Source: an uncultured Candidatus Saccharibacteria bacterium
Lineage (GTDB): Bacteria; Patescibacteriota; Minisyncoccia; Phycocordibacterales; UBA9973
DNA: 64,000 nt
Reading direction: 5' to 3'
Assembly: GCA_964354935.1 (NCBI GenBank)
Contig: CAYHBT010000001.1
Location: 10,751 to 74,750, forward strand
The notes beneath the pieces were generated by a model. That model made no database searches and was not told the origin of the DNA. It was given only the letters and a program-made list of their open reading frames with translations. This document shows, piece after piece, positions 10,003-23,845 of this stretch (position 1 is its first letter; each line of letters starts with the position of its first letter). A program made the translations under genes and the position numbers.

Positions 10003-11016
10003 ATGAAAATTGCATTATATGGTGTAGAAAAATCAGAACAATCCGTGTTTTTTAGTTCTCTTTCCGGTTCAGATATTTCATTTATTGAAGGAAAACTTGA
10101 TGAAGATAATACTGAAAAGGCAAAAGATGCCGATATGGTGTGTGTTTTTGTAGATTCAACAATAAATAAAATAGTTTTAGATTCTCTGCCTAATCTAAAA
10201 TTCATAGTCACGCGTTCGACTGGGCTTAATCATATTGATTGCGAATATGCTAAGAATAAAGGGATAAAAATTTCTTCTGTGCCCGCCTATGGCTCTCACA
10301 CTGTTGCCGAGTTTACTTTCGGATTAATTTTGAATCTTTCTAGAAATATAATTAAAGCAAACAACTATATTAGAGCATCATCTGATTTTAATTATTTTTT
10401 GGGAATGGAAGGATTTGATTTGTCTAATAAGACTTTAGGAATTATCGGTACAGGGAAAATAGGAAAAAATGTATTAAAAATAGCGAAAGGTTTTGCGATG
10501 AATGTGGTCGCCTATGATCTTCATCCGGATTTAATCTTTGCGAAAGAAAATAATTTTGAATACAAAAGTTTTCAAGAAGTTATTTCTCAATCCGACATAA
10601 TAACTCTACACGCTCCTTATAATAAAGAAAATCATCATTTAATAAACAAGGAAAATGTTTCTATTATGAAAAAAGGAGTTTTTCTGATAAATACTGCTCG
10701 TGGCGAGCTGATCGATACGGATGCGCTTATTTTCGGACTCAAGGAGGGGATTATTGCCGGAGCCGGCCTCGATGTGCTGGAAGGGGAAAAAGAATTAAAA
10801 GAAGAAATAGAGATTCTCGCTTCATCTTCAAGGTTGACCAGAATACAAGATTATAAAACGCTTCTTGAAGATCGCGTCTTGATCGATATGCCAAATGTGA
10901 TCATTACTCCACACATCGCTTTTTATACCCGTGAAGCTGTCGCTGAAATTTTAAAAGTGACCATTTTAAATATTCAAGGTTTTATTAATAACAATCCAAT
11001 AAATCTTGTACAATAA
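10003..11016 (+). CDS. D-isomer-specific 2-hydroxyacid dehydrogenase (hydroxypyruvate/glycerate dehydrogenase-like)
   Basis: Rossmann GIIGTGKIGKNV motif. Catalytic region resembles that of D-2-hydroxyacid dehydrogenases. Overlaps the start of the glycerate kinase gene (taATGa). Confidence 0.75.
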   Translation: MKIALYGVEKSEQSVFFSSLSGSDISFIEGKLDEDNTEKAKDADMVCVFVDSTINKIVLDSLPNLKFIVTRSTGLNHIDCEYAKNKGIKISSVPAYGSHTVAEFTFGLILNLSRNIIKANNYIRASSDFNYFLGMEGFDLSNKTLGIIGTGKIGKNVLKIAKGFAMNVVAYDLHPDLIFAKENNFEYKSFQEVISQSDIITLHAPYNKENHHLINKENVSIMKKGVFLINTARGELIDTDALIFGLKEGIIAGAGLDVLEGEKELKEEIEILASSSRLTRIQDYKTLLEDRVLIDMPNVIITPHIAFYTREAVAEILKVTILNIQGFINNNPINLVQ

Positions 11017-12287
11017 TGAAACGCTGGATACAGAATTTTGAAGAATTAGCTACGACAGAAAATCGAAAATTGATTCTAAATATTGCCGAAGCGGGTCTGG
11101 AATCAATTGATACAGAAGCTGTAATATCAAATTCAGTCAAACTCCAGAATGATGTTTTAAACATTATGGGTGAGGACTTTGATTTATCTAAATTTAAAAA
11201 AGTAAAAGTTGTTGGTTTTGGCAAAGCTTCTATTGATGGAGCTCACGCCTTGGAAAAAATTTTGGGTTCAAAGATTACGGCTGGCGCTGTAGTTGGTTTA
11301 CACAAGGGCGATTCAAAATATATTGAAATTTTTGCTGGAACTCACCCTCGACCCAGCCAGACCAATGTCGATGCTGGAGAGAAAATATATGAAATAGTAA
11401 AAGATTCTGGGGCAGAAGATTTAATTATTGTTTTGGTTTCAGGAGGTGGTTCCGCCTTGCTGTGTTATTCAGACAATGAATGCGAAAATAATGTTGCACT
11501 CTATGATCAATTTTTAAAAGTGGGGGGAACCATAGGAGAAATTAATACAATAAGAAAACATCTTTCAATACTAAAAGGTGGCGGTTTGGCAAAAATTGCC
11601 TATCCTGCGACAGTTGTTGGTCTGATTTTTTCTGATATCCCTGGAGATCATTTTGAAGATGTGGCGTCCGGTCCGACTTATAAAGATAAAAGCACGACAG
11701 AAGATGCTCTTAAAATTATCAGCAAATATAATTTAAGCAAATTTGATTTACTGGAGACGCTCAAAGAAGATAAATATTTTGAAAAAGTTAAAAATTTTGT
11801 TTTAGTTTCAAATAAAACAGCTCTTTTGGCGATGGCTAAAAAATCCAATGAGCTTGGTCTTAAGCCAAACATCATTTCGACTGAAATGTATGATGAAGTC
11901 AAAAGCGCTCTCGTGAAAATTTTTGACGCTAAAGAAAATGACACAGTTGTTTTAGCCGCCGGCGAACCCAAGCTCGAGGTTAAAAAGAAAGGCGGTAGCG
12001 GTGGCAGGAGTCTCTTTATGGGGCTACAGGCTATCCAGATGGGGCTAGTAGATAAAGATTCTGTATTAATACCCCTAGCTTCTGATGGTATGGATAATAG
12101 CGACGCGGCGGGAGCAATAATAGACCAAAATACCTTGGATAAAATAAAAAACTCAGGTTTCGATACGCAAAAGCATTTAGACGACTTCGACGCTTATCCG
12201 GTTTTCCAAAATTCTAAAGACATCATTATGACCGGCCCCACCGGCGCCAATGTTTCTGATTTGATGATTTTGCTTACGAAGAAATAA
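11016..12287 (+). CDS. glycerate 2-kinase (MOFRL family)
   Basis: LVSGGGSALL and KVVGFGKAS motifs typical of MOFRL/GckA glycerate kinases. Confidence 0.7.
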   Translation: MKRWIQNFEELATTENRKLILNIAEAGLESIDTEAVISNSVKLQNDVLNIMGEDFDLSKFKKVKVVGFGKASIDGAHALEKILGSKITAGAVVGLHKGDSKYIEIFAGTHPRPSQTNVDAGEKIYEIVKDSGAEDLIIVLVSGGGSALLCYSDNECENNVALYDQFLKVGGTIGEINTIRKHLSILKGGGLAKIAYPATVVGLIFSDIPGDHFEDVASGPTYKDKSTTEDALKIISKYNLSKFDLLETLKEDKYFEKVKNFVLVSNKTALLAMAKKSNELGLKPNIISTEMYDEVKSALVKIFDAKENDTVVLAAGEPKLEVKKKGGSGGRSLFMGLQAIQMGLVDKDSVLIPLASDGMDNSDAAGAIIDQNTLDKIKNSGFDTQKHLDDFDAYPVFQNSKDIIMTGPTGANVSDLMILLTKK

Positions 12288-16223: not shown

Positions 16224-17021
16224 ATGAATTCAAAAGCGCAAATTATGGCTACTATCGGTCCAGCCACCAAAGATAAAAAAATAATCGGAGAAATGATAGC
16301 AGGTAATATGGACATTGCTCGTTTGAATTTTTCTTGGGGAACTCATGAAGAGCACACTCTTTATATTAAAAATATCAGAGAAGAGGCGCAAAAAGCCGGT
16401 AGAATTATTCCAATCGTTCAGGATTTGTCCGGTCCAAGAATACAAGAAATAGCTGGACATAAATTCAACATCGAAGCGCTGGAGCTGATTACATCTAAAG
16501 ATTTGTCTGATTTAAAATTTGGCATTGAGCAAGGGGTGGATTATGTAGCGATGTCGTTTGTCGGACACAAAGACGACATTTCTAATTTACGGGATAAAAT
16601 GCGGGAATTCGGCAAAGTGATTCCGATTATTGCCAAAATTGAACGCGAAATCGCGGTTCGCAACATAAATGAAATTATAGAAAATTCCGATGCCATTATG
16701 GTCGCTCGCGGAGATTTAGGAAATGAAGTTCCGCTTGAGCAGATTCCTTTTATTCAAAAGGATATTATTGAAAAATGCAAAGCGGCAGGTAAGCCGGTAA
16801 TCGTCGCCACTCAAATAATGGAATCTATGATGCACAATCCATATCCGACTCGCGCCGAAGTCACAGATGTCGCCTATGCTGTATTAAATGGGGCAGATAT
16901 TCTAATGCTTTCGGAAGAAACCGCCATAGGAAAATATCCGCTCGAATCCGTCGCGATGATGGAAAGGGGAATGATTGAAGCGGAAAAACATCTAAAAGAT
17001 ATTAAAATAAATAGTTTATAA
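16224..17021 (+). CDS. pyk: pyruvate kinase, minimal form (A-domain TIM barrel only; no B lid domain and no C-terminal domain)
   Basis: IMATIGPA, ARLNFSWG, IIAKIE, MVARGDLG, KPVIVATQIMESM and MLSEETAIGKYP motifs. Only 265 aa. Confidence 0.8.
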   Translation: MNSKAQIMATIGPATKDKKIIGEMIAGNMDIARLNFSWGTHEEHTLYIKNIREEAQKAGRIIPIVQDLSGPRIQEIAGHKFNIEALELITSKDLSDLKFGIEQGVDYVAMSFVGHKDDISNLRDKMREFGKVIPIIAKIEREIAVRNINEIIENSDAIMVARGDLGNEVPLEQIPFIQKDIIEKCKAAGKPVIVATQIMESMMHNPYPTRAEVTDVAYAVLNGADILMLSEETAIGKYPLESVAMMERGMIEAEKHLKDIKINSL

Positions 17022-17108: not shown

Positions 17109-17133
17109 TTGTCCAACACTCGGTGTTGGACAA
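17109..17133. repeat. REP palindrome ttgtccaacactcggtgttggacaa, with a tandem half-copy just upstream
   Basis: Perfect palindrome. Flanks RAYT-2. Confidence 0.8.
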
Positions 17134-17799
17134 TCAATTTATCCAATCTAATTCTTCCTTTAACAGTTTTGCCGAGCTTGTTTTCACAAATTCATCATAT
17201 TCGTTTTTATTTTTAAACTGTCCGTTGATTATAGCAGTAATCAATAATTCTTCAAATCTATTTTTATTTACACAATCTTGATAGCTTGACCAAGGGTAAA
17301 TATTTTCTTTATTCAGCCACTCTTTTAATTCTCTTGGATTTCTGTGGATATACGCAGACAGGTATAGAAGCTGATTATTATCTTTTACATGTACTGCTTT
17401 GTATGGTCCCTGAAATAGGTGTCCTGATTTGTGGTATTTTGTATTGTAATATTTTGTATAACTATTCAAAACTCTTTGCATATATCTAGCGATACCATTT
17501 TCTTCAACTTCCTTAACGATCAAGTGAAAATGGTTTGACATTAAACAAAAAGAGGTGAGTTCCACGAATCTACCTTTTACGATTTCTTTTTTGGTTTTTA
17601 TATCAATGTCAAACACTGAGTGTTGGACAAATGATTTTATCGAACGACCAATCTGTTGAAAAACAGTAGGGGATTGAAAGTATAAAATTAAAAACAAAAA
17701 TCTTATTCTATCCATGTTGTCGTGAAAGATTAATTGTTTACTCATTCCGCGATTAAAGATATGATAATACTCTCCCGGTGCTATTTTTATATTTCTCAT
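17134..17799 (-). CDS. REP-associated tyrosine transposase (RAYT) copy 2
   Basis: GEYYHIFNRG, MSNHFHLIV and YIHRNPRE motifs. Confidence 0.8.
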   Translation of the reverse strand: MRNIKIAPGEYYHIFNRGMSKQLIFHDNMDRIRFLFLILYFQSPTVFQQIGRSIKSFVQHSVFDIDIKTKKEIVKGRFVELTSFCLMSNHFHLIVKEVEENGIARYMQRVLNSYTKYYNTKYHKSGHLFQGPYKAVHVKDNNQLLYLSAYIHRNPRELKEWLNKENIYPWSSYQDCVNKNRFEELLITAIINGQFKNKNEYDEFVKTSSAKLLKEELDWIN

Positions 17800-17826: not shown

Positions 17827-17851
17827 CTGTCCAACACTCGGTGTCGGACAG
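17827..17851. repeat. REP palindrome ctgtccaacactcggtgtcggacag (other flank of RAYT-2)
   Basis: Near-perfect palindrome. Same family as the one at 17109. Confidence 0.75.
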
Positions 17852-19058: not shown

Positions 19059-19130
19059 GCCGAGGTAGCTCAGTAGTAGAGCTCTCCCCTGAAGAGGGAT
19101 AGGTCGGCAGTGCGATTCTGCCCCTCGGCA
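19059..19130 (+). tRNA. tRNA-Phe(GAA)
   Basis: Sequence gccgaggtagctcagtagtagagctctcccctGAAgagggataggtcggcagtgcgattctgcccctcggca. The T-loop reads tgcgatt, not the canonical ttcgatt. Confidence 0.75.
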
Positions 19131-19249
19131 CATATTCGGAATAAGTAGAGCCGACGCTGTACTCAGCTCCGACGATTCTGTCGGAGAGCCGACCTTGCGT
19201 CGGCTTTGGTAGTAGCGTTCCCCTCCGACGCTACGGTCGGAGCAGGCTG

Positions 19250-19306
19250 AAGAGGGATAGGTCACCAGTTCGATTCTGGTCCTCGGCACAAAGCACCAAC
19301 ATACAA
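19250..19306 (+). pseudogene. duplicated 3' half of tRNA-Phe (anticodon loop through acceptor end) with a canonical TTCGATT T-loop. It lies 120 nt downstream of the intact gene.
   Basis: ctgaagagggataggtcaccagttcgattctggtcctcggca parallels residues 32-73 of the upstream tRNA-Phe. Confidence 0.6.
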
Positions 19307-19308
19307 AA

Positions 19309-19334
19309 GAGCACACTGCTGTGCTCTTTTTCTG
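19309..19334 (+). terminator. rho-independent terminator (agagcacactgctgtgctct + TTTTT)
   Basis: Hairpin followed by a T-tract. Confidence 0.6.
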
Positions 19335-19575
19335 TGCTTTGTGCAGACGGAAGTATGTTTTTCTAGTAAGAAAAATAACTGAGTCCGGGGCTGGAAAATT
19401 TGCTTTTGACGGAAAGCAAATTATTGTGGCTCACATGAACTATGAACGCGAAGCGTTCTAATAATAGTATTCTCGCGGATTTCTTTTTAAAAATTCGGCG
19501 GGATTCGGAACTCTGCCCGCAGGAGAGATGTGCTATGAGGAATGTGTAGAGGATTTTTATACGAGATTCGTTTAG

Positions 19576-20538
19576 TTATTCTAATTCCAAGCCTATTCTG
19601 TTTTTTTTTGCTAAATTTAGATAATGTTTTCCAATTGCAATATCAAATATAGCCATACCCATTGGATTAAACATAACTGGCTGTTCTTTAGAATAAGATT
19701 TCATGCAGTTATTTATCACCATATCCACAATAGATTTCGTGTTCTCTTTCTGTAATGTTTTCTCAATGTGAAAAATTTCAATATCTGTTTTCTCCCTGCA
19801 CACTTCCTCCCAGTTATCTACTATTATTGAATTTTTCACAAACTCATACATATTGGTTTTATAATCTCGCAGTGACACATTAAGGAGTAAAGAACCTGGC
19901 TTTGGCTTTTTATCAATATATGTTTTTTTAGATACAGTGCATGTGATTACAACGTCACTTTGTTCGTATGCCTCTAACCAATTTCTTGCAATTACCACCT
20001 TGGGATTATTTTGAAAATTTTCTGGATCAATCTCTCGAAGATCATGAATAATAATTTTTGAAATTTTATCACCATATAATTCTTTGCACATATGATAGTG
20101 ATATTGACCGATGGGTCCAAAACCAATGATTCCAACGGTGAAACTATTTAAATTTCTAACTTGTAAAAAATATCTCAGGACTAAAGAACTTACGGATACT
20201 GTACGGATTATACTCAGACGATTGGCATTAATAATTGAGAGAAATTGACCCGTATTTGAGTTGTTTAGAATGATAACACTAGAAGCTCTCGGAATCTTTT
20301 TCTCGATATTTTTTGGGAAACTTGCAATCCATTTTATTCCAGCTATGTTGAATTTTCCACCAATATATGCTGGCATTGCAATGATCCTGTTTTTTAAATC
20401 CTTAAATCGTAGATATGGCTTAACAGGCTGAACTATGTCTGATTGGGCCAAACATTTAACCGCATCGACGATTATATCTGTGCACGATTTCCAATCAATA
20501 CCAAGCTTGTCTATATCTTTTTCATTTAAATAAATCAT
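19576..20538 (-). CDS. sbnB: SbnB-like NAD-dependent dehydrogenase (ornithine cyclodeaminase/mu-crystallin family). In SbnB this is the second step of L-2,3-diaminopropionate synthesis.
   Basis: Blocks VQPVKPYLR, RIIAMPAYIGGKFNIAGIKWIAS, VVITCTV and NPMGMAIFDI match S. aureus SbnB as recalled from memory. Translationally coupled to the upstream PLP enzyme (ATGA overlap). Confidence 0.7.
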   Translation of the reverse strand: MIYLNEKDIDKLGIDWKSCTDIIVDAVKCLAQSDIVQPVKPYLRFKDLKNRIIAMPAYIGGKFNIAGIKWIASFPKNIEKKIPRASSVIILNNSNTGQFLSIINANRLSIIRTVSVSSLVLRYFLQVRNLNSFTVGIIGFGPIGQYHYHMCKELYGDKISKIIIHDLREIDPENFQNNPKVVIARNWLEAYEQSDVVITCTVSKKTYIDKKPKPGSLLLNVSLRDYKTNMYEFVKNSIIVDNWEEVCREKTDIEIFHIEKTLQKENTKSIVDMVINNCMKSYSKEQPVMFNPMGMAIFDIAIGKHYLNLAKKNRIGLELE

Positions 20539-21491
20539 ATTGTTATTCCAAAATTTTCTTTACACCACTTAGCATTAAATATTGTGGTCAAGTATCGTTT
20601 ACCGTTGTCGGCAAAGATGGTTAACACAGTAGGTGGTTCAGCAAATGTTTTATTTTTGAAATAGGTCTCAATTGCAGATATTACAGATCCTGATGAACCA
20701 CCGACAAATAGGCCATGATCTTTTATAAGTCGATGGCACATTTCAATTGCTGATTTTTCTGGTACTTTTATGACTTCATCAATCTGAGCACTTTGCAGTA
20801 TTGACGGAACCATACTTGAACCCATTCCAGGGATATAACGTTTTTTTGGTTCACCGCCAAATATAATTGAACCTTCAGTATCGACTGCAATTATTTTTGT
20901 CTGAGGAAATAATTTCTTGATTTTTTGAGACACTCCTGTAATAGTTCCACCTGAACTTACGCCTACGAATACATAATCTATAATGGATAGATCATTACAA
21001 ATTTCAGTGCCTAATGTTTCATAATATGCAGCAGCATTGTATGGGTTGCTGTACTGGTTTACCCAGTATGAATTTGGGTATGCCGAAATTAGTTCCTTAA
21101 CTTTTTTGATGCGGTTGAGCAAGTAGCCTCCATTTCCATCAACTTCAGAAATCTTTGTGACATGCTCTGTCAGATTTTTCAAGATTGCTTCGTTGATGGG
21201 TGAGATGTTTTTGTCTATGATACAGTGGAATTTTAAGTCTAATTTTTTACAGTATGAAGCTAAGGAGATGCCTAAATTCCCCGATGACGACTCGATGATT
21301 ACAGTGTCTTTATTAATCTCACCAGTTGAAAGTACTTTATTAAGAATATAAGATGCAGCACGATCTTTAACGCTACCAGTTGGGTTATAGCCTTCCAGTT
21401 TTGCAAACAATTTAATATTGTCTAAACCATTATGGTTAATTTTAATGAGAGGAGTATTACCCACATTGTCTAGAAAATCTTTATATATCAT
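20535..21491 (-). CDS. sbnA: SbnA-like PLP-dependent enzyme (cysteine synthase fold). In SbnA this condenses O-phospho-L-serine with L-glutamate.
   Basis: KDR PLP-lysine region (TGSVKDRAASYIL), IESSSGNLGISLA, GGYLLNRIKKVKEL, YWVNQYSN, IIAVDTEGSIIFG and GMGSSMVPSIL, as in the SbnA family. Confidence 0.7.
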   Translation of the reverse strand: MIYKDFLDNVGNTPLIKINHNGLDNIKLFAKLEGYNPTGSVKDRAASYILNKVLSTGEINKDTVIIESSSGNLGISLASYCKKLDLKFHCIIDKNISPINEAILKNLTEHVTKISEVDGNGGYLLNRIKKVKELISAYPNSYWVNQYSNPYNAAAYYETLGTEICNDLSIIDYVFVGVSSGGTITGVSQKIKKLFPQTKIIAVDTEGSIIFGGEPKKRYIPGMGSSMVPSILQSAQIDEVIKVPEKSAIEMCHRLIKDHGLFVGGSSGSVISAIETYFKNKTFAEPPTVLTIFADNGKRYLTTIFNAKWCKENFGITI

Positions 21492-21646
21492 CGAAGTTCC
21501 TTTAATTTAGATGGTTAGTAATATATAATAGTATTTATTATTAGTCAAGCAAAACGTAATGGTTCAATAGCTTGAAATAATAAGACAGATCGAATACTTT
21601 TATGTTAATATATAAACACTTATCTATATTATAAATAAGTATAAAG

Positions 21647-22402
21647 ATGAAAGAAAATTTACCAAAACAAAATCCATCGCTCGGCATTAATGTTTTTAGA
21701 CACGGTAAATCACGATACAAACAAGAAGAAGTGCTAATTGAAGAAGCTAGGGACTTAACAGCAGAAGGAGTTGATGATGTTAAAAAAAGTGCTGAAGCAT
21801 TAGTTAAGCTTATTAAACCAGATGAAGAGGTTGAGATCTGGTCATCTCCGATGGGGAGAACATTACAAACTGCAAAAATAATTGCTCAGGTTTTAGAGGA
21901 AAAGCAAGTACATATTCGAAAAAAAGGAGATTCTAATAAACATGGGATAAAAGTTTTCGAACAATTTTCGGAAGTTAAAAATTTTTCGTGGAAACTTTTT
22001 TATCCACTTGTAGCTGGTGGTGAAGTTGAATTTGCTGGAAATCAACGAGACTTTCTATTACGTCGTTTATTTTCTCCTTCATTTAAAATGCCTTTAGTAA
22101 AAAATGTCTTAAAAGAAGGACTTGTTGAATTCAAACGAATAAGTAATATGGGTACGAATGATAAAAAAGGATTTAATCGTAAGTTTAGACGAAAAGATCG
22201 TCAGGAATTAAACTATTATCTAAATCATAAAGAAGAAGTAGGGTTTGGAAAAGCTATTTCTGAAGAAGATCAAATGACATTAACTCAAAATAATGCAAGA
22301 TTTTTAATCCAAAAAATGAACATTCCAGAGAGTATTTTAAATAAGCCTTTTCAGCAATTAAGTAATACTGAAATACAAATTTTAAGTGCTGCATTGCGTT
22401 AG
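21647..22402 (+). CDS. histidine phosphatase superfamily protein (phosphoglycerate mutase-like) with a C-terminal extension
   Basis: RHG motif (VFRHGKSRY) and IWSSPMGRTLQTA. Confidence 0.6.
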   Translation: MKENLPKQNPSLGINVFRHGKSRYKQEEVLIEEARDLTAEGVDDVKKSAEALVKLIKPDEEVEIWSSPMGRTLQTAKIIAQVLEEKQVHIRKKGDSNKHGIKVFEQFSEVKNFSWKLFYPLVAGGEVEFAGNQRDFLLRRLFSPSFKMPLVKNVLKEGLVEFKRISNMGTNDKKGFNRKFRRKDRQELNYYLNHKEEVGFGKAISEEDQMTLTQNNARFLIQKMNIPESILNKPFQQLSNTEIQILSAALR

Positions 22403-22484
22403 GTAAAAGATTAAAAAATTAAAGAAATATCCTTAGATTGATTTATGATTATTAGATCAATGATAGTATCTAAATAATTTTAAA

Positions 22485-23327
22485 ATGGACACAAATTATG
22501 GAAAAAAAACTGCTCCTCCCACTCAATTAATTGCTGAATCTTTTGGTTCTAGAAAAAAACCAGTCCCTTTGAAGGGTGGACAATGTACAACTTATATTTC
22601 TGGAAATATAGTTCTAAAACCAGTTGGACGCGCCGAATCATTAATCTGGAAAGCAGAAGTTTTTAACAATTTGCCCGAAGTTTCAGTTTCTAATGTTCGT
22701 TTCACTAAATACATTAAATCGATTTATAATACATGGATACACGAAGGTTATAGTGCATACTTTTTCTTAGCAGGAAAACATGTAAGTGGTAAATATAAAG
22801 AAAAATTAAAGGCTAGTTGCGAATATCATAAACTTCTTAAAAATATTAAAAAACCTAGTTTTTTAGATGTTCCCGGAGGTCCTTGGTCAACAGCTAATAA
22901 GGTTGCTTTAGATGAAAAGGAATTTGATTATGATTATGATTTTTTTGATTTATATAATCAGATAAAACCACATTTAGAACCCCTAGATAAAAATAAACAG
23001 TTAATTCACGCAGATTTATCAGGAAATTTTCTTTTTGATGAAATTTTACCTCCGGCCATTATAGATTTTTCTCCTGCTTGGGCGCCAAACGGATTTGCTG
23101 AAGCAATAATGTTGGCTGATGCAATTGTTTGGGAAAATGCTGACTACAAAGATTTGGAGGTTTTTAAGAAAGTACCTAATATTGGAAAATTGGTGTGGAG
23201 GGGAATTTTAACTAGAATTGTAGAACAAGCTGAACATATTAAATGGTTTGGTAAAGATAGAGTATTGGCTGTTAAGGACGCACAAGCATTTCAAAAGGCA
23301 ATAGATTATTTAAAAGTAAATTATTAG
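22485..23327 (+). CDS. APH/choline-kinase-like phosphotransferase family protein
   Basis: Gly-rich loop plus Lys (LKGGQCTTYISGNIVLKPV), catalytic loop HADLSGNFLF, and IDFSPAW. Confidence 0.5.
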   Translation: MDTNYGKKTAPPTQLIAESFGSRKKPVPLKGGQCTTYISGNIVLKPVGRAESLIWKAEVFNNLPEVSVSNVRFTKYIKSIYNTWIHEGYSAYFFLAGKHVSGKYKEKLKASCEYHKLLKNIKKPSFLDVPGGPWSTANKVALDEKEFDYDYDFFDLYNQIKPHLEPLDKNKQLIHADLSGNFLFDEILPPAIIDFSPAWAPNGFAEAIMLADAIVWENADYKDLEVFKKVPNIGKLVWRGILTRIVEQAEHIKWFGKDRVLAVKDAQAFQKAIDYLKVNY

Positions 23328-23347
23328 TTGCTCACAATTGAATTTTT

Positions 23348-23845
23348 CTAGAGCGATTTGACTTTAATGTTATTGGTTTTGTCTTTGTCCACTTTTTGCA
23401 GCTTGATGGTGAGCAGGCCGTGTTTTTCGGTCGCTTCGACTTCTTCCGGTTCTATTTCTTGCGGGAGTGAAAGAGTGCGAGAAAATCTTCCCCAATATAA
23501 TTCTTTGGTGAAATAATTTTCATCGTCTATATTGCGATGCTCTTCGCGTTGGCCGATGATGGTGATGATATCGCGAGCGATGGTCAACTCCAAATCTTCC
23601 GGTTTTACTCCGGCTACCATTGTCTGCACGACGATTTCCGTCGGAGTCTGATAGACATCGACTGCCAGCTCTGCTTCTTCATTTTCTTCTTCAATCCAAT
23701 TGTTGTTGGTCTCCTGTTTTTTTTCTTTATCGTTATTTTTACGCGAATGCGCGCCGACTGAAATTCTTTTCGGCTCTTCGTATTCTTCTTTTTCAGCGTG
23801 AGTATTTCCAGTTAGTCTATCCCAAAAACTTCTTTTTTTATCCAT
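23348..23845 (-). CDS. Hsp20/alpha-crystallin small heat-shock protein with a charged N-terminal extension
   Basis: Alpha-crystallin domain spanning VDVYQTPTEIVVQTMVAGVKPEDLELTIA through GLLTIKLQK. Confidence 0.75.
   Translation of the reverse strand: MDKKRSFWDRLTGNTHAEKEEYEEPKRISVGAHSRKNNDKEKKQETNNNWIEEENEEAELAVDVYQTPTEIVVQTMVAGVKPEDLELTIARDIITIIGQREEHRNIDDENYFTKELYWGRFSRTLSLPQEIEPEEVEATEKHGLLTIKLQKVDKDKTNNIKVKSL

Follow-up and report, generated by a model that had tools for sequence, protein, structure and literature searches.

An intact sbnA-sbnB operon beside a deletion scar in a block exchanged between Patescibacteria lineages

The locus and its sbnA-sbnB operon

We analysed a 64-kb stretch of DNA (the window; positions 10,751 to 74,750 of contig CAYHBT010000001.1) from an uncultured groundwater Candidatus Saccharibacteria bacterium, in which two genes of the SbnA and SbnB families, known from the synthesis of L-2,3-diaminopropionate (L-Dap), lie within a small block of DNA between a tRNA-Phe gene and an HSP20 gene. 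A preliminary description of the locus had listed four open reading frames (ORFs) in the block, namely sbnA, sbnB, a gene for a PGAM-like histidine phosphatase (HisPhos) and a gene for a kinase of the aminoglycoside phosphotransferase (APH)/choline-kinase fold. All four were found at the places given, and every motif quoted was present in their translations. The explanation that fits the data best as a whole, and that we regard as probable, combines an intact sbnA-sbnB operon, the scar of a deletion, a block that was exchanged between lineages and a kinase gene unrelated to the operon. Coordinates are positions in the window. The L-numbered contigs are loci of relatives used for comparison, and those relatives which carry the block in intact form are contigs of groundwater Patescibacteria (candidate phyla radiation, CPR). 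The block contains the following features:

19484-22041: block arm A, comprising sbnB, sbnA, the divergent intergenic region and hisPhos codons 1-131 (blastn)
19576-20538, minus strand: sbnB, putative NAD-dependent dehydrogenase of N-(2-amino-2-carboxyethyl)-L-glutamate (ACEGA) with the ornithine cyclodeaminase (OCD)/mu-crystallin fold, 320 aa, intact (TIGR03944, 4M54)
20535-21491, minus strand: sbnA, putative pyridoxal phosphate (PLP)-dependent N-(2-amino-2-carboxyethyl)-L-glutamate synthase, 318 aa, intact (TIGR03945, 5D84)
21520-21548, minus strand: sigma-70-like promoter match TTGACT-17-TATATT upstream of sbnA, weak evidence
21647-22402, plus strand: chimeric ORF and deletion scar, 251 aa (DNA comparison with L001, L086 and L096)
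22022-22041: deletion junction, the overlap of arms A and B, with the 20-bp microhomology GAAGTTGAATTTGCTGGAAA (three-way alignment, blastn coordinates)
22022-23326: block arm B, comprising the 3′ end of a KsgA-like gene and the kinase-like gene (blastn)
22485-23327, plus strand: small-molecule kinase of the APH/choline-kinase fold, TIGR02569-like, 280 aa, intact (hidden Markov model (HMM), fold, residues)

Judged by its sequence, the window pair is of the SbnA/SbnB type and not of the CysK/OCD type, since HMM scores, best PDB matches, conserved residues and translational coupling agree. SbnA reached 393.9 bits on the NCBIfam model TIGR03945 (trusted cutoff 349.95), compared with 227.1 bits and 213.8 bits on the cysteine synthase models cysKM and cysK, and its best PDB match was SbnA of Staphylococcus aureus (5D84, E = 8e-78; best cysteine synthase, 1e-48). 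Residues K42, R127, Y147 and S180 align with K47, R132, Y152 and S185 of 5D84. K47 is the lysine forming the Schiff base with PLP, and R132, Y152 and S185 are credited with the selective binding of O-phosphoserine (PMC12414870); all four are conserved in the window protein. SbnB gave 315.3 bits on TIGR03944 and aligned over the full length of this model (residues 1-319 on positions 1-324 of 327). Its score lies just below the trusted cutoff but far above the OCD-type models, all of which remained at or below 95 bits (next model 94.9 bits). The best PDB match was S. aureus SbnB (4M54, E = 9e-41), followed by alanine dehydrogenase 1omo (5e-18), and the similarity to the S. aureus protein is a distant one (143 bits by phmmer). 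The stop codon of sbnA and the start codon of sbnB overlap as ATGA, and the two genes are paired likewise in all relatives looked at. Thus, both the family assignment and the translational coupling given in the preliminary description were corroborated.

Comparison with the L001 genes yielded an omega of 0.168 for sbnA (synonymous divergence, dS, 0.08) and of 0.135 for sbnB (dS 0.15), values which cover the whole divergence from L001 and L086 and cannot show selection after the deletion. The products are 95-97% identical to their L001 counterparts (SbnA 97%), and the intergenic region upstream of sbnA, which contains the promoter match, is conserved between the two loci; the number of sigma-70-like sites in this region does not exceed that in shuffled sequence. 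These data show that sbnA and sbnB survive as an intact, translationally coupled operon under purifying selection.

By analogy with the characterised S. aureus enzymes, SbnA would condense O-phospho-L-serine and L-glutamate to ACEGA, which SbnB would oxidise with NAD+ to L-Dap and 2-oxoglutarate. In S. aureus, where SbnA and SbnB belong to staphyloferrin B synthesis (PDB 5D84-5D87, 4M54), the enzymes are of the same families and are likewise encoded by adjacent co-directional genes. Unlike S. aureus, the window contains neither the nonribosomal peptide synthetase (NRPS)-independent siderophore (NIS) synthetases SbnC, SbnE and SbnF nor an SbnI-type serine kinase or a transporter, and its host is a Patescibacteria organism with a reduced genome and not a siderophore producer. 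In agreement with the earlier statement that NRPS and siderophore synthetase genes are missing nearby, no NRPS, NIS (IucA/IucC) synthetase or ATP-grasp ligase was detected among the window ORFs of at least 300 aa, the largest of which encodes 722 aa.

The chimeric reading frame and the deletion

The supposed phosphatase gene is not a complete gene. Its match to His_Phos_1 (PF00300) in Pfam is confined to residues 16-90 of the 251-aa product, which does contain the RHG motif (FRHGKS, residues 17-22). Intact HisPhos homologues comprise 274-276 aa (L001 274, L096 276) and possess a distal IIIVTHD motif at about residue 210. The distal catalytic His was not found in the window ORF, because its HisPhos sequence ends after residue 131. 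The DNA of L001 is near-identical across these first 131 codons, and homology breaks off abruptly at position 22041. From position 22022 on, the window is 95.6% identical to L086, running through the tail of a 349-aa KsgA-like gene into the kinase-like gene, and the tail of the ORF shares 94-95% identity with the RrnaAD genes of L086 and L096. The ORF is hence a chimera, in which HisPhos codons 1-131 continue in frame into codons 225-349 of a gene for a KsgA/RsmA-like methyltransferase. In a three-way alignment of the window, L001 and L086, the junction microhomology GAAGTTGAATTTGCTGGAAA was matched by the RrnaAD parent at 18 of 20 positions. In view of the reaction mechanism of the family, the chimera should be inactive as a phosphatase; it is nevertheless likely to be annotated as a histidine phosphatase.

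Both parent genes reside on one contig in L096, L097 and L100. The intact block of approximately 11.3 kb starts with the kinase-like gene, the KsgA-like methyltransferase gene, a gene for a 224-aa protein and the genes for serine hydroxymethyltransferase (SHMT), a family 2 glycosyltransferase (GT2) and a NodU-like carbamoyltransferase. It continues with QueC, Vut_1/YhhQ, a 106-aa protein and HisPhos, and is completed by the divergently oriented sbnA-sbnB. By blastn, window positions 22022-22974 correspond to L096 950-1 and positions 19484-22041 to L096 11019-8451, so that L096 951-8450 (about 7.5 kb) is missing from the window. Arm A is 95.6-95.9% identical to L001 and L096-L099, and arm B is 95-96% identical to L086, L096 and L100 (blastn). 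As read from these alignments, a single deletion of about 7.5 kb at the 20-bp microhomology joined hisPhos codon 131 to codon 225 of the KsgA-like gene, and positions 19484-23326 represent a 3.8-kb remnant of the 11.3-kb block. The deletion took SHMT, QueC, the carbamoyltransferase, the catalytic half of the phosphatase and everything else between them. Second copies of SHMT, QueC, Vut_1, GT2, carbamoyltransferase and the KsgA-like gene were not detected in the 64-kb window. An independent acquisition of arm A and arm B, as separate patches, was also considered and was dropped since L096 and L097 have both arms on one contig.

Two of the genes affected deserve separate mention. The KsgA/RsmA-like 16S rRNA dimethyltransferase gene is cut to its last 125 codons (22022-22402, plus strand), and the 64 kb contain no intact copy; should the rest of the genome lack one as well, the lineage would be without a near-universal rRNA modification enzyme. 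The NodU/CmcH-like carbamoyltransferase and GT2 genes lie between QueC and SHMT in the intact block (L096:4354-6048, L097:4318-6048); L091 lacks them, and in the window they were lost with the deletion. It is conceivable that the carbamoyltransferase of the ancestral block carbamoylated Dap to ureidoalanine.

The deletion raises the question whether sbnA and sbnB are themselves a decaying leftover, in a lineage that is losing the block and in which the pair has no role since its partners are gone. A large deletion lies directly beside sbnAB, the truncated KsgA-like and HisPhos genes demonstrate that the locus tolerates damage, and a consumer or partner gene was not found in the 64 kb. However, the deletion ended short of the operon, both genes are of full length and match their HMMs from end to end with the catalytic residues intact, the upstream region with the promoter match is conserved, and omega amounts to only 0.14-0.17. 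We therefore consider it unlikely that the operon is such a leftover.

The kinase gene and the possible use of L-Dap

According to its conserved residues and its structural model, the kinase gene is a genuine and intact gene for an enzyme of the APH/choline-kinase fold, as had been proposed. The product scored 72 bits on TIGR02569 (cutoff 136.75). The window protein itself has no Pfam match, and PF01636 was matched by 27 of the 37 aligned family members. Residues K45, H175, D177, N181 and D194 are invariant in the family alignment and make up a complete catalytic set (Lys, the HxDxxxxN loop and the metal-binding Asp of DFS). An AlphaFold2 model (pLDDT 93.4) was compared with known structures by Foldseek, which ranked the type-II homoserine kinase 2ppq first (TMq 0.67), followed by APH(9), aminopropanol kinase and LicA. 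The probability given by this program was 1.00 for 2ppq, 3i0o, 6ef6 and 4r78, at a sequence identity to solved kinases of 11-16%. The omega of the gene is 0.166.

Fold and catalytic set are common to the window kinase and to 2ppq, APH(9), LicA and TIGR02569, but in contrast to these kinases its conserved neighbour is a KsgA-like methyltransferase gene and not a gene of an amino-acid pathway. The KsgA-like gene precedes the kinase gene in L086, L087, L096 and L100. In the intact ancestor the kinase gene is located downstream of it, about 7.5 kb from sbnA, and it adjoins sbnA in the window only because of the deletion. Patescibacteria commonly encode members of the kinase family, at 50-60% identity, and homologues at 54-61% identity (L090, L101, L102) have no sbnAB, SHMT or KsgA neighbour. 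A metagenome scan with the kinase recovered six loci, too few for co-occurrence statistics. This genomic context suggests that the kinase is an unrelated neighbour set next to sbnA by the deletion.

The four genes had previously been interpreted as a self-contained L-Dap module, in which the kinase makes O-phosphoserine and the phosphatase regulates its pool. Extended to the ancestral block, this model would have SHMT as the source of the serine. Relatives do possess the same four genes together, on a segment of about 11 kb that also includes SHMT and in which HisPhos is intact and diverges from sbnA (L096, L097), yet not as the compact group seen in the window, the kinase being remote from sbnA. 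In favour of a module, the structure closest to the kinase is that of an enzyme which phosphorylates an amino-acid hydroxyl, and SHMT is also close to sbnAB in L091, whose SbnA is 70% identical to that of the window. Moreover, S. aureus feeds its SbnA with a dedicated serine kinase, SbnI. On the other hand, the window phosphatase is a scar, i.e., a truncated fusion without the distal catalytic His, SHMT was deleted, and the kinase originates from the other arm of the block. Outside the block, the kinase is widespread in CPR without any of the supposed partners beside it (see above), nine cluster-type CPR sbnAB loci contain neither kinase nor HisPhos within 7-10 kb, and the APH gene near sbnAB in L091 is not a detectable homologue of the window kinase. 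Finally, HisPhos obtained 20-22 bits on the PspA phosphoserine phosphatase model, whose cutoff is 350. A self-contained module is thus improbable, and the plausible four-gene 'module' appears to be a deletion artefact that placed unrelated genes side by side.

We give similarly little credence to a wider proposal, according to which L-Dap has an undescribed, NRPS-independent use in Patescibacteria. In most lineages, the genes found together with sbnAB (see below) would then make a small peptide of diamino or beta-amino acids, for instance an envelope modifier or inter-cellular effector, and the block would be an alternative, mobile unit leading from glycine through serine and O-phosphoserine to Dap, with SHMT and the kinase, as an L-serine kinase of a new type, feeding SbnA. 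As part of the same proposal, the window would have kept a minimal kinase-SbnA-SbnB core after the deletion.

Two candidates for a link to L-Dap elsewhere in the window were rejected. The Mur ligase encoded after FtsI, considered as a MurE and thus for a role of Dap in the cell wall, proved to be MurF. The 2-hydroxyacid dehydrogenase at 10003-11016, considered as a SerA-type source of phosphoserine, had its best matches in VanH, D-lactate dehydrogenase and glyoxylate reductase. Its gene is directly followed by one for glycerate 2-kinase (together 10003-12287, plus strand), and the two enzymes may form a hydroxypyruvate/glycerate shunt tied to serine metabolism.

As SbnA/SbnB homologues, the window enzymes are nothing out of the ordinary. 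Patescibacteria (Berkelbacteria, Paceibacterota, Minisyncoccia, Saccharibacteria) often encode SbnA homologues of 59-71% identity, and in several metagenome-assembled genomes (MAGs) of this group these are already labelled SbnA by NCBI or JGI. As many such MAGs encode SbnA, the presence of the pair in a minimal genome is not as unexpected as the preliminary description had it. In nine of 12 distinct CPR contexts, sbnAB were embedded in a conserved cluster of six genes. Besides SbnA and SbnB it encodes a KamA-family radical-SAM 2,3-aminomutase, a Ddl-like ATP-grasp ligase, a stand-alone C39-like cysteine peptidase and a protein of about 450 aa with weak similarity to BesA, LdmS and pre-ATP-grasp domains, which is probably a second ATP-grasp ligase. 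The cluster was seen in L002-L005, L007-L010, L012, L092 and L093, and is located in four of these contigs as follows:

L004:4231-10324, CPR six-gene cluster
L002:2896-8927, CPR six-gene cluster
L092:8001-15264, CPR six-gene cluster
L093:398-5910, CPR six-gene cluster

A diaminobutyrate transaminase gene is part of the cluster in L092 only. Relative to the window proteins, SbnA of the cluster loci is 59-71% and SbnB 55-68% identical. The window resembles the cluster loci in the coupled arrangement of sbnAB and in the clade of its SbnA, but is devoid of the four partner genes, which were absent from the 64 kb in tblastn searches with two divergent query sets. Loci with sbnAB and without the cluster partners are the window, L001, L096 and L091. 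A description of the cluster was not found in the searchable literature, which was examined for reports of SbnA or Dap from CPR organisms and of Dap in connection with ATP-grasp enzymes and aminomutases.

Judging from its genes, the cluster may serve to assemble, without an NRPS, a small peptide or amide in which Dap is combined with a beta-amino acid. Dapdiamide-type pathways are an example of NRPS-independent, ATP-grasp-dependent synthesis of Dap-containing natural products. Their logic, the ligation of L-Dap from SbnA/SbnB-type enzymes by an ATP-grasp protein, is that which the CPR cluster suggests; in comparison with such pathways the window lacks the ligase. Seen in this context, the sbnAB pair of the window may serve to supply a precursor, with the partner genes usual in CPR missing from the window; the L-Dap of this lineage would then be released or be consumed through genes located in another part of the genome. 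The cluster may be a sign that organisms regarded as nearly devoid of biosynthetic capacity produce a metabolite containing Dap; as a target it is of more interest than the window itself.

Exchange of the block and its borders

The borders of the block were studied together with the adjoining features:

19059-19131, plus strand: tRNA-Phe (GAA), intact, on the backbone side of the block (ARAGORN; Rfam tRNA model, 62.4 bits)
19147-19292, plus strand: tRNA-like element, repeat family D1, with a multibranch fold
19305-19330, plus strand: terminator-like hairpin followed by a T-run, downstream of the tRNA region (consensus scan; inverted repeat I3)
23348-23845, minus strand: HSP20, first gene of the backbone (Pfam; blastn)

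While the block is 95.6% identical to L001 at the nucleotide level, the adjoining syntenic backbone HSP20-PrsW-ValRS-TsaD shows only 68-76% identity (blastn). Correspondingly, dS relative to L001 was 0.08-0.15 in the block and 0.85 (HSP20) and 1.79 (PrsW) in the backbone, a roughly tenfold discordance. Three different sets of flanks were encountered. In the window, the block is bordered by tRNA-Phe on one side and by HSP20 on the other. L001 has HSP20 on the sbnB side, and the block is therefore inverted there with respect to the window. In L096-L098, the sbnB side borders on genes for RecQ, Bles03, DUF6155, a helicase, Fic and a serine recombinase. Taken together, the discordant divergence and the differing flanks show, as far as the compared sequences go, that the block was recently exchanged between diverged CPR lineages. 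The horizontal acquisition postulated before thus holds, but on these grounds and not on those of GC content or the tRNA repeat. For ultra-small CPR genomes, the locus is a clean and datable case of both the exchange of a gene block and a deletion mediated by microhomology.

As regards the flanks, the helicase in L096 and L098 is of the AEP-TOTE/DEAD type, and the neighbourhood resembles a mobile element or a defence island (L096:11571-17609, L098:4915-12009). Furthermore, the block, about 96% identical in the window and L001, meets the 3′ end of the same HSP20 gene by its opposite ends (window 23327-23348, L001:3478-3491). Repeats or a recombinase that might explain these contacts were not found.

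The AT-rich character ascribed to the block could be confirmed in part. With GC contents of 0.33 and 0.30, against 0.38 for the window, the block is poorer in GC than its immediate flanks. The genes sbnA and sbnB, however, lie within the gene-to-gene spread of the window, remaining within 1.3 standard deviations for GC, GC3 and codon usage (GC z -0.64 for sbnA and -1.30 for sbnB; GC3 z about -0.95 for both). GC3 is extreme only in the chimera (z -2.46) and the kinase gene (z -2.27). Composition is thus weak evidence for horizontal movement.

A duplication of the 3′ half of tRNA-Phe had also been noticed. The copy exists (44 nt, 89% identical, 19247-19290), but it does not flank the block: the two copies lie 158 nt apart on the same side of it and enclose about 115 nt, and the half-copy ends approximately 190 nt before the block edge at 19484. 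There is no third half-site in the window that would bracket the block. Could the block nevertheless have entered tRNA-Phe by site-specific recombination, as an integrative island with the half-copy as its attachment (att) scar? The proximity of the copy, the occurrence of the block in several genomic contexts and a serine recombinase about 7 kb from sbnB in L098 would be in line with this idea. It is contradicted by the position of the repeats, by the lack of an integrase gene in or beside the block in the window and by the lack of tRNA genes at the block edges in the other loci that bear it. Integration of this kind is very unlikely.

The tRNA-like element lies between tRNA-Phe and the block, and its last 44 nt constitute the half-copy just described. 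It is rich in GC and adopts a closed fold with pairing of a 5′ GCCGA to a 3′ TCGGC around four hairpins (-61.9 kcal/mol, z = -2.89). Neither Rfam nor ARAGORN called it as a tRNA at normal settings. Its identification as a tRNA or an intron-containing tRNA was abandoned, as relaxed runs of both programs produced only a low-confidence pseudo 'tRNA-Arg' at the loosest setting. Possible identities of the element are a degenerate tRNA gene, a structured RNA and the scar of an old att site.

Several points weigh against our explanation of the locus, in addition to the reach of the omega values mentioned above. SbnB is 11.6 bits under the trusted cutoff of TIGR03944 (326.9), and catalysis by the CPR enzymes is predicted from their S. 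aureus counterparts. The position of the window SbnA inside the cluster-bearing CPR clade was obtained from a neighbour-joining tree that carries no support values, and the pair is an 'orphan' in the sense that no partner lies within the 64-kb window, not within the genome. L091 keeps SHMT, QueC, Vut_1 and the gene for the 106-aa protein near sbnAB, and this neighbourhood is accordingly old in the sub-lineage. As the ancestral block held SHMT, an intact HisPhos and the kinase as well, there may be some functional linkage within it. Finally, an integrase, flanking repeats or, in the other loci, a tRNA gene at the block edges, any of which might account for the exchange, were not found.

Although the source is evidently a MAG and a short stretch is shared at the junction, it is extremely unlikely that the chimera and the junctions arose from a wrong joining of sequences from two populations in the metagenome assembly, because the separate assemblies of runs ERR3856787 and ERR3856788 contain the identical chimeric protein within stretches of 5.9 kb and 13.6 kb that are identical to the NCBI/ENA contig across all junctions, and because the microhomology (18 of 20 nt) is shorter than the usual assembly k-mers.

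The rest of the window is an ordinary chromosome of the Patescibacteria type, with genes for aminoacyl-tRNA synthetases, MurJ, LepA, enolase, FtsZ/FtsA and MraW-FtsI-MurF as well as GatB, Obg, TsaD and glutamate dehydrogenase. A pyruvate kinase ORF (16224-17021, plus strand), located directly after the enolase gene and followed by tRNA-Gly, comprises 265 aa, about half the usual length. At a distance of 1.3 kb upstream of tRNA-Phe, a gene for an IS200/Y1-transposase-like (RAYT-like) protein of 221 aa was identified (17134-17799, minus strand). Three copies of the REP-like palindrome TGTCCAACACTCGGTGTTGGACA are situated beside this gene (17109-17132, 17607-17630 and 17828-17850).

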